Shown here piece after piece: positions 1 to 25,710 of a stretch of DNA of 32,333 nt. How positions within the stretch are numbered: position 1 is the stretch's first letter; every line of letters begins with the position of its first letter. A model generated the notes under the pieces. That model made no database searches. It was not told the DNA's origin and saw only the letters and a program-made list of their open reading frames with translations. The position numbers and the translations under genes were made by a program. The stretch comes from a virus. The stretch lies in the UHGV virus genome UHGV-0045956. One strand, written 5' to 3'.

Positions 1-49
1 CCATTTTAGTTAATTTATCCTTATAAAACAAACAGATAAATAATAAACA

Positions 50-4592: not shown

Positions 4593-4699
4593 NNNNNNNN
4601 NNNNNNNNNNNNNNNNNNNNNNNNNNNNNNNNNNNNNNNNNNNNNNNNNNNNNNNNNNNNNNNNNNNNNNNNNNNNNNNNNNNNNNNNNNNNNNNNNNN
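4593..4699. other. assembly gap (107 N)
   Basis: Run of N inside the E coding region. Confidence 0.98.
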
Positions 4700-6552: not shown

Positions 6553-6630
6553 NNNNNNNNNNNNNNNNNNNNNNNNNNNNNNNNNNNNNNNNNNNNNNNN
6601 NNNNNNNNNNNNNNNNNNNNNNNNNNNNNN
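6553..6630. other. assembly gap (78 N) followed by A22 and C17 homopolymers
   Basis: N run, then aaaaaaaaaaaaaaaaaaaaaaggggccgccccccccccccccccc at 6631..6677. Confidence 0.95.
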
Positions 6631-6752
6631 AAAAAAAAAAAAAAAAAAAAAAGGGGCCGCCCCCCCCCCCCCCCCCAGTCCTGATTTGTACACACTCATT
6701 TTCCGACTGACAATTTACATAGCCAAAACGCTATCAAATCTGACAGTCTGCT

Positions 6753-6853: not shown

Positions 6854-7960
6854 ATGGATGTCATTGAACTTAGAGAGTTACTTATCAAGTATAATGGTCT
6901 TCAAAATACTGACGAAGTCTATACGTTTTATTATGATGAAACGAATAATATTCGAAAACTATATTTAAAAGATTCTGGTTTTAATGTTGTAAAGGCGGAT
7001 AATTTCATCCTTGCAGGAATACTACACAAAGGGTTAAGCACTGACAGCGATTATTCAACCCTATTTAAAAAACTTAATCTTCAAAAAAGTGCCCGCGAGT
7101 TAAAACTCAGTCATATTGCCAAGGGTAGTTTTTTGGACATGCTTAAATCTGATAAGCTTTTAATTATTCTAAACTGGCTTATTGAAAACAATTTCCACAT
7201 CCATTATTTTAATCTTAATATCACATACTGGTCTATTATTGACATTATTGATTCTATTATTGGAGAGCTACATAATCCTTTTTATATCATGAACCACATG
7301 TCACTTAAGAGCGATTTTTATGAGCTTGCCAATAGCAATTCCGATGTTTTCCTGAATGCTCTACATAAATTTAACTACCCCGATATTCCAGAAGAAAAAG
7401 TTTATGAGTTTTGCCTCTGGCTTATCGATTTTACATGCATGCACAGTTGTATGCTACCAGATTTTCGAGCACACGCACTCAAAAATTTGGTTAAAGAATC
7501 TCTAAAAATCGAAGAACTACCGTTCATATCGGGATTTCATGGTCGAAAACTGATCGATAGCTTTATGGTATTTTATTTAAGAAACTTGTATCTATTTAAA
7601 AATTCCATTCACATATTTGATGAAGAAAATAGCATTCAAGATGAAGTTAAAAACTTCCCGTTAACTGAAAATGGCATACCAATACAGAATCATGAATTCG
7701 TTAAATCCCACAACTCAGAGGCTGTCCAACTATCTGATGTTATCGCAGGCTTTTTGGGTAAGTATTTTTCTTACTTAAAAGATGTAAATGACGAGCAATT
7801 AGCGATTGATAAGTCAGCCTTAACGAGCAAGCAATTTAAGACCCTTTCTGCGTTAAAACACATTATTGATATTTCTGATGATGTTAGCAGAGGATTTTTT
7901 AATGAAGTTAGCAGCGAGGGAGAGCGACGAAGAAACAACCGTTTTTTACATGGTGTATAA
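6854..7960 (+). CDS. hypothetical protein, AT-rich cargo gene at the Z/fun position (candidate defence/exclusion gene)
   Basis: 368-aa ORF, AGGGGA ribosome-binding site, strongly AT-rich, opposite strand to the flanking late genes; no transmembrane segment; DE near N-terminus (YYDETNN) and Q-x-x-D near C-terminus (VQLSDVIAG). Confidence 0.75.
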   Translation: MDVIELRELLIKYNGLQNTDEVYTFYYDETNNIRKLYLKDSGFNVVKADNFILAGILHKGLSTDSDYSTLFKKLNLQKSARELKLSHIAKGSFLDMLKSDKLLIILNWLIENNFHIHYFNLNITYWSIIDIIDSIIGELHNPFYIMNHMSLKSDFYELANSNSDVFLNALHKFNYPDIPEEKVYEFCLWLIDFTCMHSCMLPDFRAHALKNLVKESLKIEELPFISGFHGRKLIDSFMVFYLRNLYLFKNSIHIFDEENSIQDEVKNFPLTENGIPIQNHEFVKSHNSEAVQLSDVIAGFLGKYFSYLKDVNDEQLAIDKSALTSKQFKTLSALKHIIDISDDVSRGFFNEVSSEGERRRNNRFLHGV

Positions 7961-16760: not shown

Positions 16761-17504
16761 TTAACTGGCTTTCTTTTTCGGGCGTCCACGTTTTGCCGGT
16801 GTCACGCTCCGGGTCTTACGCGGAGTGCGGGTGGCCGCTTTGGGCTGCGGCTCCGGCTTCGGTTTCAGCTCCCGCTCCAGTCGTTCAATCTCTTTTTTGA
16901 CGCCTGCCTGACAGTCGAGCTGTGTCGCACGTTGCAGGTGCGCCAGCGCACCGGCGGCATCACCACCGTCACGCAGAAACAGACCGGTGATTTTGTGCAG
17001 CTTTGCGCGCACTTCATCAGGCATGTCAGCCGTGGCGGTCAGTTCGAGGGTGTCCGTCAGCAGGCGGGTATCCACAGACTCACCGGCAGCGTGGGCGCGC
17101 ATGGCCGCAAGTGCCACCTCCTCGGTGAACATGTACGGCGGGGTGCGGCGGTGTTTACCCGGCATGGTCAGACCGTACTTCAGGGCATAACGGGCAATCT
17201 CCAGCGCACCGGCAATATCGCCGGTATCCAGACGCCACAGCATGACCGTCATCAGAATGTCATCCTGTGCACCTTTGCCCTGCTCCAGCACGCCATTCAC
17301 CCACGGCAACCAGAACGGCAGCAGTTCGCGTTTTTTTGCGGCCTTCAGCTCTTTTGAATAAATCGCTTTCAGTGTGCGCTGGTCTGCGGCGAGCTTGACC
17401 AGCATCTGCTCATAGACAGTTGCATGTCGCAGCGGGGCGGCTTCCCGCTGCGCGGTCATCGCTGCCGAGACCCGCATCATGTGGCGCTGTGCGGGACTCG
17501 TCAT
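16761..17504 (-). CDS. M: terminase small subunit gpM
   Basis: 247 aa as in P2 M; basic C-terminal tail. Confidence 0.85.
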   Translation of the reverse strand: MTSPAQRHMMRVSAAMTAQREAAPLRHATVYEQMLVKLAADQRTLKAIYSKELKAAKKRELLPFWLPWVNGVLEQGKGAQDDILMTVMLWRLDTGDIAGALEIARYALKYGLTMPGKHRRTPPYMFTEEVALAAMRAHAAGESVDTRLLTDTLELTATADMPDEVRAKLHKITGLFLRDGGDAAGALAHLQRATQLDCQAGVKKEIERLERELKPKPEPQPKAATRTPRKTRSVTPAKRGRPKKKAS

Positions 17505-19667: not shown

Positions 19668-21440
19668 ATGACCATCACCACAGACACCACTCTTTTACAC
19701 GACCCGCGTCGTCAGGCGGCGCTGCTGTACTGGCAGGGATTTTCCGTGCCGCAGATTGCCGCCATGTTGCAGATGAAACGCCCGACAGTGCAGAGCTGGA
19801 AACAGCGCGACGGCTGGGACAGCGTTGCCCCCATCAGCCGTGTCGAAATGAGTCTGGAAGCGCGGCTGACCCAGCTCATCATCAAACCGCAGAAAACCGG
19901 CGGTGACTTCAAGGAAATTGACCTGCTCGGACGCCAGATTGAACGACTGGCACGGGTAAACCGCTACAGCCAGACCGGCAACGAGGCAGACCTTAATCCG
20001 AACGTCGCTAACCGCAACAAAGGCGGGCGGCGCAAACCGAAAAAGAATTTTTTCAGTGACGAGGCCATCGAAAAGCTGGAGCAGATTTTCTTTGAGCAGT
20101 CTTTCGAATATCAGTTGCACTGGTATCGCGCCGGGCTTGAGCACCGCATCCGCGATATCCTGAAATCCCGCCAGATTGGCGCGACGTTTTATTTTTCCCG
20201 CGAGGCGCTGCTGCGCGCCCTGAAAACCGGTCATAACCAGATTTTTCTGTCGGCCAGTAAAACGCAGGCGTATGTGTTCCGCGAATACATCATCGCCTTT
20301 GCCCGGCTGGTTGACGTTGACCTGACCGGTGACCCGATTGTCCTGGGCAATAACGGTGCAAAACTGATTTTTCTCGGCACCAACTCCAACACCGCACAGA
20401 GCCATAACGGCGACCTGTACGTCGATGAGATTTTCTGGATCCCGAATTTTCAGGTACTGCGTAAGGTGGCATCAGGTATGGCCTCACAGAGTCACCTGCG
20501 CTCGACCTATTTCTCCACCCCGTCCACGCTGGCGCACGACGCCTACCCGTTCTGGTCGGGTGAACTGTTCAACCGGGGACGCGCCAGCGCCGCCGAACGC
20601 GTGGAAATCGACATCAGTCATAACGCCCTTGCCGGAGGTCTTCTCTGTGCGGACGGCCAGTGGCGGCAGATTGTCACCATTGAGGACGCCCTGAAAGGTG
20701 GCTGCACGCTGTTCGACATTGAGCAGCTCAAACGTGAAAACAGCGCCGACGATTTTAAAAACCTGTTCATGTGTGAATTTGTTGACGACAAGGCGTCGGT
20801 ATTCCCGTTCGAGGAGCTGCAACGCTGCATGGTCGACACGCTGGAAGAATGGGAAGACTATGCGCCGTTTGCCGCGAATCCGTTCGGCTCCCGCCCGGTA
20901 TGGATTGGTTACGACCCGTCACACCGTGGCGACAGCGCCGGATGCGTGGTGCTGGCACCGCCGGTGGTGGCCGGTGGCAAATTCAGAATACTTGAGCGTC
21001 ACCAGTGGAAAGGCATGGACTTTGCCACTCAGGCGGAATCCATCCGCAAACTCACCGAAAAATACAACGTCGAATACATCGGTATTGATGCCACCGGCCT
21101 CGGTGTCGGCGTGTTCCAGCTCGTGCGCTCGTTCTATCCCGCCGCGCGCGATATCCGCTACACGCCGGAAATGAAAACCGCAATGGTGCTCAAGGCAAAA
21201 GACGTTATTCGCCGTGGCTGTCTGGAATATGACGTCAGCGCCACCGACATCACCAGCTCGTTTATGGCTATCCGCAAGACCATGACCAGCAGCGGACGCA
21301 GCGCCACCTATGAGGCCAGCCGCAGCGAGGAAGCCAGCCACGCCGACCTCGCCTGGGCGACCATGCACGCCCTGTTAAATGAGCCACTCACTGCCGGTAT
21401 CAGCACCCCGCTGACATCCACCATTCTGGAGTTTTACTGA
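19668..21440 (+). CDS. P: terminase large subunit gpP
   Basis: Trimmed to ATG 19668 with GAGG ribosome-binding site (MTITTDTTLLHDP…), 590 aa as in P2 P; divergent from O. Confidence 0.9.
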   Translation: MTITTDTTLLHDPRRQAALLYWQGFSVPQIAAMLQMKRPTVQSWKQRDGWDSVAPISRVEMSLEARLTQLIIKPQKTGGDFKEIDLLGRQIERLARVNRYSQTGNEADLNPNVANRNKGGRRKPKKNFFSDEAIEKLEQIFFEQSFEYQLHWYRAGLEHRIRDILKSRQIGATFYFSREALLRALKTGHNQIFLSASKTQAYVFREYIIAFARLVDVDLTGDPIVLGNNGAKLIFLGTNSNTAQSHNGDLYVDEIFWIPNFQVLRKVASGMASQSHLRSTYFSTPSTLAHDAYPFWSGELFNRGRASAAERVEIDISHNALAGGLLCADGQWRQIVTIEDALKGGCTLFDIEQLKRENSADDFKNLFMCEFVDDKASVFPFEELQRCMVDTLEEWEDYAPFAANPFGSRPVWIGYDPSHRGDSAGCVVLAPPVVAGGKFRILERHQWKGMDFATQAESIRKLTEKYNVEYIGIDATGLGVGVFQLVRSFYPAARDIRYTPEMKTAMVLKAKDVIRRGCLEYDVSATDITSSFMAIRKTMTSSGRSATYEASRSEEASHADLAWATMHALLNEPLTAGISTPLTSTILEFY

Positions 21441-22474
21441 TGAGCAAGAAAAAAGGGAAAACACCGCGACCAGCGGCAAAAACAATGACCGCCAGCGCCC
21501 CGAAAATGGAGGCATTCACCTTTGGCGAGCCGGTGCCGGTACTCGACCGCCGTGACATTCTGGATTACGTCGAATGCATCAGTAACGGCAGATGGTATGA
21601 GCCGCCGGTCAGCTTTACCGGTCTGGCAAAAAGTCTGCGTGCTGCCGTGCATCACAGCTCACCGATTTACGTCAAACGCAATATTCTGGCCTCGACATTT
21701 ATCCCGCACCCGTGGCTGTCCCAGCAGGATTTCAGCCGCTTTGTACTGGATTTTCTGGTGTTCGGTAATGCGTTTCTGGAAAAGCGTTACAGCACCACCG
21801 GTAAGGTCATCAGACTGGAAACCTCACCGGCAAAATATACCCGCCGTGGCGTGGAGGAGGATGTTTACTGGTGGGTGCCGTCCTTCAACGAGCCGACAGC
21901 CTTCACGCCCGGCTCCGTGTTTCACCTGCTGGAGCCCGATATTAATCAGGAGCTGTACGGTCTGCCGGAATATCTCAGCGCCCTTAACTCTGCCTGGCTG
22001 AATGAGTCGGCCACGCTGTTCCGCCGCAAGTATTACGAAAACGGCGCACATGCCGGATACATCATGTACGTCACCGATGCCGTGCAGGATCGCAACGATA
22101 TCGAAATGCTTCGCGAAAACATGGTGAAGTCGAAAGGCCGCAACAACTTTAAAAACCTGTTTCTCTATGCCCCGCAGGGGAAAGCCGACGGCATTAAAAT
22201 TATCCCGCTCAGTGAAGTGGCGACGAAGGACGATTTTTTTAATATCAAAAAAGCCAGCGCCGCTGACCTGCTGGATGCGCACCGCATCCCCTTTCAGTTG
22301 ATGGGCGGCAAGCCGGAGAACGTCGGGTCGCTAGGTGATATTGAGAAAGTGGCAAAGGTCTTTGTCCGCAATGAGCTTATCCCGCTACAGGACAGGATCC
22401 GCGAGATAAACGGCTGGCTCGGTCAGGAGGTCATCCGCTTTAAAAACTACTCACTGGACACTGACAACGGCTGA
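21440..22474 (+). CDS. Q: portal protein gpQ
   Basis: 344 aa as in P2 Q; start overlaps P stop (ATGA). Confidence 0.9.
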   Translation: MSKKKGKTPRPAAKTMTASAPKMEAFTFGEPVPVLDRRDILDYVECISNGRWYEPPVSFTGLAKSLRAAVHHSSPIYVKRNILASTFIPHPWLSQQDFSRFVLDFLVFGNAFLEKRYSTTGKVIRLETSPAKYTRRGVEEDVYWWVPSFNEPTAFTPGSVFHLLEPDINQELYGLPEYLSALNSAWLNESATLFRRKYYENGAHAGYIMYVTDAVQDRNDIEMLRENMVKSKGRNNFKNLFLYAPQGKADGIKIIPLSEVATKDDFFNIKKASAADLLDAHRIPFQLMGGKPENVGSLGDIEKVAKVFVRNELIPLQDRIREINGWLGQEVIRFKNYSLDTDNG

Positions 22475-22478
22475 ACAT

Positions 22479-22501
22479 CGCCGCCTGCGGGCGGCTTTTT
22501 T
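22479..22501 (+). terminator. rho-independent terminator after Q
   Basis: gccgcc-tgcg-ggcggc stem-loop followed by TTTTTT directly after the Q stop. Confidence 0.6.
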
Positions 22502-22666
22502 ACACCCCGTCATCACGGCCTCACACGCTCACCACCGCACAAAACACCCCGCAGACACACCAACGCCCCGGCAGGCCGACTAAATGCCATCACGACGCGC
22601 TCAGACGCAAAAAAACTGTCACTACCACGCCGTTACGTTGGCCCCATAAAAAGTGGCCCACTCCAG

Positions 22667-23668
22667 TTATAATAATTTGTCCAGCCTAGCTGAAACAATA
22701 CCTAGAACAACTGTTGAAACTATATTTATCACCACTCTTAAAATACTCTTCTTTCGCTTCTTACTATATTCATCATACAACCTCTCATCACCCTTATTTA
22801 ATACAATGTACGATGCTGGAGTATAACCATCAATTAATCTCTCTAGGCCTTCACCTAAATGCTCCGCTAACAATGGGATAATAGAAAACGCACCAAGAAA
22901 GAGCATTAAAAATTTTACTAACCTTTCTTTATCACCAATATCAATATATTCACCAACATTGTACAGTGCATAACTTAAAATCAATATAGAAAAAGAAAAC
23001 CGCATAATCAGTGGAATTAAATACGATATCCTTTGAGCTTGCTGTATCAATGGTATTTTGTTTGTAACTCTTTGACATCCTTCAACCCATTCTTTAAATG
23101 CTTCGATAAAACCTCTAGCCACTACATAATCAGCATATTCAACAACTATTTCTGCTGAACTGGTGAGCATGAATGCAACAAAACGCCCCCTAATGAAAGG
23201 TGGTGCATCTTCTTCCATTTCTTTCTGCATAGCAATTCTTGATGCTAATTTAACAGTAACTTCATAGTGGTTAGGTAATGATGCCCCTGTCGATAAAATT
23301 GCAAAGTTATATTTTAAAATTACACTAATTGTTGGACTACTTCCCGCACTACTCGACATTGCAAACTTATCAAAAGAGGTAAACTGTTCCTTTCTATCTT
23401 TTGAATGTAAAATAGTTACCGTTTCATTTTTCGATATAATATTATGAACATCACACAATTGATTTATTTTTTGATGAACGCTTCTTATCTCATCGATATT
23501 TATAAGTAAATTCTCAGAGGTTCTCTGCCTTATTGTTTCTGTTGTTCCCGTTATATGTTGATAAATTTGCTGATAAATACGAATGCTAGTATTAATATCC
23601 CGAGAAGCAGGTAACCCACTATTAACCCCATTATTTTTTTCATTTGACTCATCAATTATAATACTCAT
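22667..23668 (-). CDS. hypothetical membrane protein, AT-rich cargo between cos and Q
   Basis: 333-aa ORF; ~200-aa soluble N-terminal part then three predicted transmembrane helices; strongly AT-rich versus backbone. Confidence 0.7.
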   Translation of the reverse strand: MSIIIDESNEKNNGVNSGLPASRDINTSIRIYQQIYQHITGTTETIRQRTSENLLINIDEIRSVHQKINQLCDVHNIISKNETVTILHSKDRKEQFTSFDKFAMSSSAGSSPTISVILKYNFAILSTGASLPNHYEVTVKLASRIAMQKEMEEDAPPFIRGRFVAFMLTSSAEIVVEYADYVVARGFIEAFKEWVEGCQRVTNKIPLIQQAQRISYLIPLIMRFSFSILILSYALYNVGEYIDIGDKERLVKFLMLFLGAFSIIPLLAEHLGEGLERLIDGYTPASYIVLNKGDERLYDEYSKKRKKSILRVVINIVSTVVLGIVSARLDKLL

Positions 23669-23912
23669 TTTATTTCCTATAAAAACTTAACCAGCAAATT
23701 AAACAAAAAGAACACAAGGTTATTATTTAGCGTGCAACAACACGATTGCACAACCAAATGCCACGTGTACGAATCTAACCATTCTCTTATATTAAATCAA
23801 GTCAATACAACCTAATAGACACATTTTTTATCGCAGTTATACACTTGGTTAACAATATGCGGATAGTTACTCAAATCAAATTACATATATGACAAAATGA
23901 ACAATTGCGCGC

Positions 23913-23931
23913 AGTGCTTTCCCCGCCTCGC
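23913..23931 (-). other. cos: cos site, 19-nt cohesive end GGCGAGGCGGGGAAAGCAC
   Basis: + strand gtgctttccccgcctcgcc is the reverse complement of the P2 cohesive-end sequence as I recall it; GC-rich island between AT-rich genes. Confidence 0.7.
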
Positions 23932-24036
23932 CCGCCCGCTTCATGGGGCGGTTTTAATGTAGGTGCATGAACACTCCAAGAGCGCGCCAGCATTGACGAT
24001 AACTGACAATAAAAACGGCCTCTGACATATGCACAT

Positions 24037-24954
24037 TCATTCACAATCATGCATATTAAAGAACGGGTATGGATAGCGTCGTAAGATCTCATCTTCACTG
24101 TACCCCAAATAATCAGACATGAGTTTAATCGAAGGTGGCGTTACAGGTTTCATAAGCAGAGGAAAACGTTCGTGCAAATCATTGAATTTAAGAATCCCTG
24201 AATCTTCTTGCATTACTCTTTTGTCAAACAGCGATTCAGCATACAATGGCAACTCTTTGAGCAACAGATTAATATCAAGCAACAAAACATCTATCATAAT
24301 CATTATTTGCTCAGTAATATCAATGTAATAAGCCGCCTTATTACTACCTATAGCATTAACAATATCATCATTTTTAAAACGCATCGTCGGCAAAGGTGAA
24401 CCTGTTGATTCAATAATCATTCCTCTATAGGTGTCATCAAAATCATTCCTAACATTTAATGCAGCCAATAGGCTGTTAAACCTTCTTGCTATATCACTAA
24501 CAACAAAAGCATCCCCCCAGTTAGTAGTCTTTGCTGTCTCTCTATTATTCTCTACTCCCTTTTGACTCAATATACAGGCCAACTCACTTAAATCTGATGA
24601 TAGGGGAGCACCAGAAAAAACCACGACAGGAAAAGCTAAAGCCCTCTCGATAGGATTTTCACTTATACTTACCCCACCATAATAATTCCCTTTAATTTGC
24701 AACAACGTTGTCATTGCAGAAAAGTAGTCATAAATACATTTATTTACAACGCTTACCTTTCTTCTTTGTGCTTTAAGGTACTCCTGCCGATAAAACAACC
24801 TAGTTGCAATAAAGTAACTCAGCACAGAAGAGATAATTGGTAATACTACAGGCAGCACATAATCTTTTATGACATTAGTATTATTAACGCCTTTAATTGC
24901 ATCAATAATATCCTCAACCTGAAGCTGCCCTATTATATAGCTCGTATAATCCAT
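24037..24954 (-). CDS. hypothetical membrane-anchored protein, AT-rich cargo at the tin/old position
   Basis: 305-aa ORF; single N-terminal transmembrane helix (YVLPVVLPIISSVLSYFIATRLF); ATG 2 nt after the upstream lipoprotein stop. Confidence 0.7.
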   Translation of the reverse strand: MDYTSYIIGQLQVEDIIDAIKGVNNTNVIKDYVLPVVLPIISSVLSYFIATRLFYRQEYLKAQRRKVSVVNKCIYDYFSAMTTLLQIKGNYYGGVSISENPIERALAFPVVVFSGAPLSSDLSELACILSQKGVENNRETAKTTNWGDAFVVSDIARRFNSLLAALNVRNDFDDTYRGMIIESTGSPLPTMRFKNDDIVNAIGSNKAAYYIDITEQIMIMIDVLLLDINLLLKELPLYAESLFDKRVMQEDSGILKFNDLHERFPLLMKPVTPPSIKLMSDYLGYSEDEILRRYPYPFFNMHDCE

Positions 24955-24956
24955 TA

Positions 24957-25163
24957 TCAGAAAGCCGTTATTGTTCTATTACAACGTTCAGTAGCAACTT
25001 TCACAGCATCACGCCCATCACTTAATTTAGGGTAAGAACCAATCTCTATAAAATATTGGACACCTCTTTCAATACAACTCTCAACTTCTTTTTTATTACT
25101 CTCATTACAACCAACCAGCAACGCCCCAAAAAAAGCCATAACACAAATCAGTTTTCTTTTCAT
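24957..25163 (-). CDS. small lipoprotein (candidate superinfection-exclusion factor)
   Basis: ATG 25163 with AAGGTG ribosome-binding site; MKRKLICVMAFFGALLVGC signal peptide and lipobox; ~50-aa mature part with Cys residues; AT-rich. Confidence 0.6.
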   Translation of the reverse strand: MKRKLICVMAFFGALLVGCNESNKKEVESCIERGVQYFIEIGSYPKLSDGRDAVKVATERCNRTITAF

Positions 25164-25301
25164 TTTAAACACCTTAACAAACACGATACAAAAACGTATA
25201 TTTATATTATCTTTCAGAATAAGTAAATCCCAGCTATTCATCAACTCTCGGTGTCAATCTGATGGGTATCTAACGCCTCGCTAAGCTCGTTGTTCAACCC
25301 C

Positions 25302-25428
25302 NNNNNNNNNNNNNNNNNNNNNNNNNNNNNNNNNNNNNNNNNNNNNNNNNNNNNNNNNNNNNNNNNNNNNNNNNNNNNNNNNNNNNNNNNNNNNNNNNNN
25401 NNNNNNNNNNNNNNNNNNNNNNNNNNNN
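25302..25428. other. assembly gap (127 N) followed by ~31-nt poly-G
   Basis: N run, then gggggggggtgggggggggggggggggggggg at 25429..25460. Confidence 0.95.
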
Positions 25429-25464
25429 GGGGGGGGGTGGGGGGGGGGGGGGGGGGGGGGTTTA

Positions 25465-25710
25465 CTACGGCCTGCGTGGTGGTTGTTTTGGCATGTTAGC
25501 TGGCCGAGATGTCTCAATTTTCTGTCTACTGATATCGTTAAACCGTCTGTAATTATCCCGGACTATTTCGGCACACCCGACCAGCTCATCGGGCGTCAGA
25601 TTTTCGTTGACCATAATCCGCTGTAAACGCTGAACAATAGCCATCAGCTTGATATTTTTAGTTTTATGGTGCGGTATCTCGCCTGGTATTCTGTGCATTA
25701 TCCAAGCCAC
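25465..25710 (-). CDS. hypothetical protein (3' end next to gap and poly-G, boundary unreliable)
   Basis: 81-aa ORF downstream of the ASCH-like gene; C-terminus abuts the homopolymer and gap. Confidence 0.35.
   Translation of the reverse strand: MAWIMHRIPGEIPHHKTKNIKLMAIVQRLQRIMVNENLTPDELVGCAEIVRDNYRRFNDISRQKIETSRPANMPKQPPRRP

Follow-up and report, generated by a model that had tools for sequence, protein, structure and literature searches.

The 32,333-nucleotide viral sequence UHGV-0045956 (hereafter the window) contains what we take, with a probability of roughly 0.78, to be the packaging cos site of a complete P2-like prophage, in which a compact and selected core lies between two cargo compartments that reassort with respect to one another. 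The evidence for this reading lies in the identity of the cohesive-end sequence, the extent of the conservation around it, the boundaries of the inserted DNA, the mosaic combinations of cargo found in related genomes and the intact terminase genes of the same prophage. As judged from sequence, the description of the site as a P2 cos with accessory DNA on both sides is correct.

The window spans almost the whole of a P2-like prophage, from D at its left end to int at its right end. In all alignable parts it is 99.9-100% identical to a prophage of Escherichia coli MS 16-3. The phage orientation corresponds to the minus strand of the window. Read in this direction, the gene order is gpA, a DUF3850 gene (P2 orf91-like), a small hypothetical gene, the gpA-side cargo, cos, the portal-side cargo, the P2 left-arm non-coding block with the terminator tQ, and then Q and P, which are convergent with the portal-side cargo; O, N and M lie beyond them. 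The cos site is consequently located between the replication-gene side and the portal/terminase operon, and its cognate terminase is encoded in the same prophage, with both subunits full length (Table 1). No RNA family was detected in the window at the gathering threshold.

Table 1. Features of the cos region and packaging genes in the window (coordinates of the whole stretch)
Feature	Position	Strand	Basis
Terminase small/endonuclease subunit gpM, full length	16761..17504	-	244/247 residues identical to P2 gpM
Terminase large subunit gpP, full length	19668..21440	+	588/590 residues identical to P2 gpP
Portal gene Q	21440..22474	+	Pfam Phage_portal; annotated as portal in MS 16-3
P2 left-arm non-coding block (P2 ~27-186)	22475..22636	-	Comparison with P2 and D7
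Terminator tQ, inside the left-arm block	22480..22495		Annotated in NC_001895; found by terminator scan
Portal-side (cos-Q) cargo, 1270-bp AT-rich insertion at P2 coordinate 26/27	22637..23906	-	Comparison with P2 and D7
333-aa cargo gene	22667..23668	-	Pfam, PADLOC and PHROG searches; AlphaFold model
Conserved cos core, 62 bp (-36..-1, 19-mer, +1..+7)	23907..23968	-	Profile of 113 regions
55-bp P2/P4 core (-29..+7)	23907..23961	-	Contained in the 62-bp core
Cohesive-end 19-nt sequence GGCGAGGCGGGGAAAGCAC	23914..23932	-	Equals P2 cosL/cosR
GC hairpin CCGCCC-GCTTCATG-GGGCGG, 8-nt loop	23932..23951; TTTT 23952..23955	+	Fold; terminator scan
gpA-side cargo (P2 tin/old position)	23969..25301	-	97% identity to AC1 and D7
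305-aa gene	24037..24954	-	Hit to a PHROG of unannotated function
Small lipoprotein-like gene	24957..25163/25244	-	Hit to a PHROG of unannotated function

Two further observations concern the prophage as a whole. Runs of N are present at 4593-4699, at 6553-6630 (beside a poly-C tract, 6660-6676) and at 25302-25428 (beside a poly-G tract, 25429-25460). As MS 16-3 has a 31-nt GC-rich hairpin, CCCCGCCATCCCTGAAACTTGCTTTCAGGGATGGCGGGG, at the position of the third run, these resemble assembly or masking artefacts at hairpins, and they distort the ORF calls and the composition around 25250-25520. Separately, a 368-aa gene at 6854-7960 (+), between the tail sheath and tail fibre genes, occupies the position of the P2 Z/fun hotspot and constitutes a third cargo slot within the same prophage; it matches the PADLOC candidate PDC-S51 (E 9e-106), Pfam DUF3800 and phrog_15126.

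The cohesive-end sequence GGCGAGGCGGGGAAAGCAC has a single, exact match in the window, against a chance expectation of 0.01 in shuffled sequence even with up to three mismatches allowed. The same 19-mer is annotated in the P2 reference NC_001895 as cosL (1..19) and cosR (33575..33593), and the P2/186/P4-type identity proposed in the preliminary description is thereby confirmed. That description also had the presence and strand of the 19-mer right, although the coordinates given there (23913..23931) were off by one base. Its characterization of the site as intact holds for the 19-mer and for the adjoining +1..+7 consensus, but the flanking core carries a G>A change at -28, which is considered below.

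The extent of the conserved sequence was determined from a scan of IMG/VR seeded with GGCGWGGCGGGGAAAGCAY, which returned at least 120 elements that were aligned on the 19-mer together with the window. An information-content profile, calculated from the 113 unique P2/186/P4-type cos regions among the matches listed, is high over positions -36..-1 on the gpA side, the 19-mer itself and +1..+7 (TGCGCGC) on the portal side, and collapses beyond these limits. Within this 62-bp stretch, the segment from -29 to +7 is common to P2 and P4, while the outer ATGCA (-36..-32) is absent in P2; a P2 cos core of 55 bp is likewise attributed to Ziermann & Calendar 1990 in PMC5694545. The window fits the family profile at 54 of the 55 core positions, with -28 as the sole outlier. 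P4, which is packaged by the P2 terminase and “shares a core cos packaging signal” with P2 (PMC9122126), departs from the P2 sequence after +7 and upstream of about -29, and its CGCGCGC is followed directly by the AT-rich gop region. Since P4 is packaged despite diverging right past +7, it provides a natural precedent for foreign DNA from +8 onwards, and the flanks of the window are compatible with packaging. The published 55-bp core, together with the sharing of only 7 bp on the portal side by P4, largely answers how much flanking sequence the terminase needs, a question that the preliminary description had raised.

In mechanistic terms, the target of the terminase (gpM and gpP) would be a compact duplex of about 55-62 bp, nicked twice, 19 nt apart, to generate 5' overhangs of GGCGAGGCGGGGAAAGCAC, and we infer that this copy of cos is cut and packaged in the same manner. 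Selection would act on the core only, so that DNA past +7 on the portal side and past about -36 (at minimum -29) on the gpA side would be dispensable. Such dispensable flanks could then give rise to two cargo compartments, namely the tin/old defence hotspot on the gpA side and a rarer cos-to-Q slot on the portal side.

On the portal side, AT-rich foreign DNA (GC 0.28-0.39 vs 0.54-0.60 for the backbone) starts at 23906, 7 bp past the 19-mer and at the very next base after the core. The corresponding interval measures 1801 bp in the window as compared to 531 bp at the empty site of E. coli D7. The insertion is clean, with the flanking P2 sequence fully retained and the P2 left arm, including tQ, kept downstream at a displacement of 1.27 kb from cos; no obvious target duplication was found in the comparison with P2 and D7. 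These boundaries were obtained by direct reading and BLAST; a three-way MAFFT alignment misplaced the cos of D7 and P2. The cargo is present in 10 of 5426 complete E. coli genomes, always at the same position. No match was found in 50,697 phage records, and none of the best 60 matching P2-like cultured phages has any portal-side cargo, all of them showing the standard cos-Q spacing. Only two IMG/VR contigs bear the junction, and neither yielded evidence of virion-type ends at a cos with the cargo. Consequently, the support for packaging of this exact arrangement comes from the analogy with P4. The non-coding block between cos and tQ is well conserved in close relatives of P2, and is deleted in most elements bearing portal-side cargo among the IMG/VR matches listed.

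The single long ORF of this cargo starts at 23668, 245 bp from cos. The earlier statement that an accessory cluster abuts cos immediately on this side is accordingly true of the foreign DNA, which begins after 7 bp, but not of coding sequence. The encoded 333-aa protein gave no significant Pfam match (DUF3894 was found at sub-threshold level only) and no match in PADLOC or PHROG. Its family comprises at least 197 homologues, and those sampled (40-56% identity, from Klebsiella, Yersinia and Pantoea) occupy the cos-to-portal slot of P2-like prophages as well. In the Klebsiella locus (L131, 5964-6003) the called ORF starts 3 nt past the cos core, and in the Yersinia loci (L132-L134) the homologue is paired with an AAA_15/AAA_21 ATPase; the Pantoea homologue is in L135. 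The AlphaFold2 model (pLDDT 77) features an N-terminal alpha/beta domain followed by three long hydrophobic C-terminal helices, and structure searches with it were uninformative, yielding a weak CorA-like match and generic helical bundles. From position and topology only, a membrane-acting defence effector would be our guess, and that the protein represents an undescribed single-gene anti-phage system is a speculative proposal to which we give little weight. An origin of the cargo in P4 is unsupported, as all placed homologues of the 333-aa protein are in P2-like prophages and no P4 context was encountered for the family among the loci examined; a 2026 survey reports almost no recent exchange of defence genes between P2 and P4.

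On the opposite side of cos, the AT-rich cargo begins about 40 bp beyond the core, and the stop codon of the 305-aa gene is separated from the 19-mer by 104 intervening bases, in agreement with the approximately 105 bp initially noted. The sequence from 23933 to 25298 is 97% identical, over 1366-1392 bp, to phage AC1 (OV192280) and to E. coli D7. AC1 is a plaque-forming P2-like phage whose record is linearised at cos with the same gpA-side flank, so that phage viability is compatible with a gene ending as close as 104 bp to cos. The cloned three-gene TIR and transmembrane locus of AC1 protects against lambda, LF82_P8 and P2 (PMC9122126). The window shares 97% identity with this locus over the 305-aa and small genes, and the same abutment to cos, but the TIR gene (PADLOC TIR-TM in D7) is absent, which renders the window copy of the system incomplete. 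The two remaining genes may thus represent a decayed or re-purposed TIR and transmembrane system. The homology to AC1 stops at the artefactual gap or hairpin described above.

Both flanks have the properties of a hotspot, that is, variable and compositionally foreign DNA (GC 0.28-0.40 vs about 0.55) between backbone genes, and alternative contents were found at both slots in E. coli genomes. Among the 94 P2-like loci in which Q could be located (IMG/VR matches listed), the cos-Q distance is below 300 bp in 80, 300-700 bp in 5 and 700-3200 bp in 9. Some of the cargos in the portal-side slot elsewhere carry DRT2, RT_UG36, a HEC-02/PD-T4-4-like AAA_15/AAA_21 ATPase or PDC-S02. When the two sides of cos are considered jointly, four combinations of cargo are observed: D7 (A1,Q0), the window (A1,Q1), HKUOPY1 (A2,Q1) and PD4 with 20 others (A2,Q0). 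Thus, the gpA-side cargo of the window is found with an empty portal side in D7 and at least a dozen other genomes. Conversely, of the ten genomes carrying the portal-side cargo, nine depart from the window on the gpA flank, the divergence starting between -27 and -58; in HKUOPY1 this side carries a reverse transcriptase gene. A total of 21 genomes combine the reverse transcriptase flank with an unoccupied portal side, including one that matches the composite query at 100%. Some P2-type cos/portal regions with a reverse transcriptase cargo were also seen on plasmid-size records (NZ_CP018956.1, 216 kb; NZ_CP104682.1, 210 kb; NZ_CP146689.1, 66 kb), and 7-17 such plasmid places were counted.

In all ten genomes the portal-side cargo and its junctions are 98.9-99.8% identical, which favours reassortment over repeated identical insertion. 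In combination, the four arrangements support reassortment at cos or in its vicinity, in an interval of some 100 bp containing the site. In the core, the window agrees with D7 upstream of about -37 and with HKUOPY1 at -11, a pattern that a crossover within the core could produce, although only one base is informative here. The two compartments have only the core in common, and crossovers in or beside it would hence reassort their cargos among related prophages, by what is presumably homologous recombination. The earlier suggestion that the cargo was acquired by recombination at or near cos is supported by the occurrence of all four combinations in E. coli, albeit as a population-level pattern that does not reveal the mechanism.

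The positions at which cargo begins invite another explanation, in which the cargo entered at the edge of cos by illegitimate or end-directed insertion, as in the repair of terminase-cut ends, rather than by homologous exchange through the core. The common boundary would then mark a preferred break point, and the mosaic pattern would result from repeated independent insertions. Most of the larger portal-side cargos among the listed IMG/VR loci begin at +7/+8 (P2 coordinate 25-29), and eleven independent cargos, including that of P4, start 25-29 bp from the start of the 19-mer (matches listed). The cleanness of the insertion in the window agrees with this mechanism, and repeated insertion could also account for the four combinations. 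However, the near-identity of cargo and junctions in all ten genomes fits a single insertion followed by reassortment, and some cargos begin further out, at +38 or at about +66-85. Moreover, the shared boundary can be accounted for in the absence of a special mechanism, and is most simply explained by a deletion ratchet, in which successive replacements would trim non-essential DNA up to the essential core but never the core itself. Most of the larger listed cargos replace the left arm, whereas that of the window leaves it whole. On balance we regard insertion at cut ends as unlikely for this cargo, and we hold as similarly doubtful the broader idea that terminase cleavage itself accounts for the defence and moron hotspots flanking cos in P2-like phages and adjoining it in P4, with cos-cut ends serving as recombinogenic entry points through which cargo is captured and exchanged at the margin of the core. 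Reassortment across a conserved core consequently remains the preferred reading.

The deviation at -28 (23960) bears on whether this particular site is functional. Besides this change, the core differs from the consensus by A>C at -31 (23963), a variable position. The base at -28 is G in all 120 other elements among the IMG/VR matches listed. A targeted scan for A at this position identified one IMG/VR contig, bearing the same cargo junction as the window, and two of 185,579 species-representative genomes (a Buttiauxella MAG and a Rouxiella isolate). The exact 62-mer occurs in MS 16-3 only among the 5426 complete E. coli genomes. The consensus from -36 to -25 (minus strand, 23957-23968 in the window) contains a 5-bp inverted repeat, ATGCA-AC-TGCAT, which looks like a putative dimer binding site. 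The change in the window breaks the right half (TGCAT) of this palindrome, at the outer edge of the 55-bp core, and could as such weaken terminase binding.

Given the rarity of the variant, and the restriction of the portal-side cargo to ten E. coli genomes, the site might be a relic at which either the -28 change or the 1.27-kb displacement of the left arm impairs recognition by the terminase and makes packaging inefficient. Still, the remaining core positions, the sequences flanking both nicks and the full set of packaging genes are intact. The left ATGCA half is missing from P2 itself, and the palindrome is therefore not strictly needed. Likewise, P4 and many prophages have no left-arm block beside cos, and this block accordingly appears to be dispensable for cos function. 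The consensus G is, moreover, present at -28 in the nine other genomes with the portal-side cargo, which were checked in part. An impaired relic thus seems distinctly improbable, and a probably working packaging site is the interpretation that we retain.

The preliminary description also drew attention to a short GC hairpin adjoining the 19-mer. This is indeed present on the plus strand, followed by TTTT, and the terminal base of the 19-mer is part of its first pair. The match from the terminator scan (23932..23951 plus TTTTAATGTA) is on the same strand as tQ and combines a GC-rich stem-loop with a T run, as in a Rho-independent terminator; the hairpin is terminator-like for transcription from the portal side across cos. 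As a structure it is, however, not conserved. The stem is intact in 31 (6-bp version) or 46 (4-bp version) of 90 unique cores, the pairs -18:-1 and -16:-3 being broken in 49% and 39% of them, respectively. The changes in these 90 cores are one-sided, with essentially no compensatory pairs indicative of stem maintenance, and the local fold is no more stable than that of shuffled sequence (z = 0.30). On the basis of the pair counts and the shuffle control, the hairpin was rejected as a conserved structure. The invariant bases AAGCGGGC adjoin the nick, and look like a duplex recognition sequence rather than an RNA or DNA stem. A functional role of the hairpin as a Rho-independent terminator, blocking portal-side transcription over cos and insulating the gpA-side cargo, would find some encouragement in the six all-GC pairs, the 8-nt loop, the TTTT tail and the scan result, but is improbable considering the frequent and uncompensated loss of the stem, the unremarkable fold, the fit of AAGCGGGC with protein recognition of duplex DNA, and the fact that the P-Q operon is already terminated by tQ.

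The closest known counterpart of the site is the cos of P2, which has the same 19-mer and +1..+7 sequence, matches over -29..-1 save for -28 and the variable positions -11/-12, has the same location between gpA-side accessory genes and Q, and is served by a terminase that is 99% identical. In P2, 167 bp of non-coding DNA with tQ at its end separate cos from Q, whereas the window has the 1270-bp cargo at 26/27 as well as A at -28. P4, with its gop-beta-cII hotspot, has AT-rich variable cargo immediately beyond +7, on the same side of cos as the window, and the two have the right-arm core in common; unlike the window prophage, P4 encodes neither a portal nor a terminase. The defence hotspot at gop-beta-cII adjoins the P4 cos (Rousset et al. 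2022).

Foreign genes in the cos-portal interval have similarly been described for other P2-like phages. The interval between cos and the gpQ homologue has been put forward as a hotspot, with retrons Ec67 and Ec86 in 186-like prophages (Dodd & Egan 1996, as cited), ctx in phiCTX (Nakayama 1999, as cited) and ORF1-4 in phiRSY1. The retrons, going by the title of the report, replace the DNA between cos and the terminator, whereas the insertion in the window keeps the whole left arm. For P2-like prophages of E. coli, the hotspot given in the accessible part of Rousset 2022 is the cos-proximal region between gpA and gpQ, and it is relisted in a 2026 survey covering 8165 P2-like prophages; in that part it is defined from gene to gene, with no division into compartments by cos, while the window has two. 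With both hotspots in the literature, the window is an instance of a described architecture. The architecture itself is already known, and the useful additions are the mapping of the core, the reassortment of two compartments, the -28 variant and the cargo family.

With respect to this family of phages, the published gpA-gpQ hotspot would thus consist of two compartments that reassort independently across the core. The independent cargos and P4, which stop at +7 and at about -29 to -36, together constitute a natural deletion map of cos. The -28 change could be used to probe the role of that base in recognition by the terminase, and the base is of interest for the design of P2/P4-based transducing particles. 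The 333-aa family represents an uncharacterised cargo that travels in the cos-to-portal slot. In the main, the analysis confirms that packaging in the P2 family relies on a very small cos core, beside which accessory and defence genes gather.
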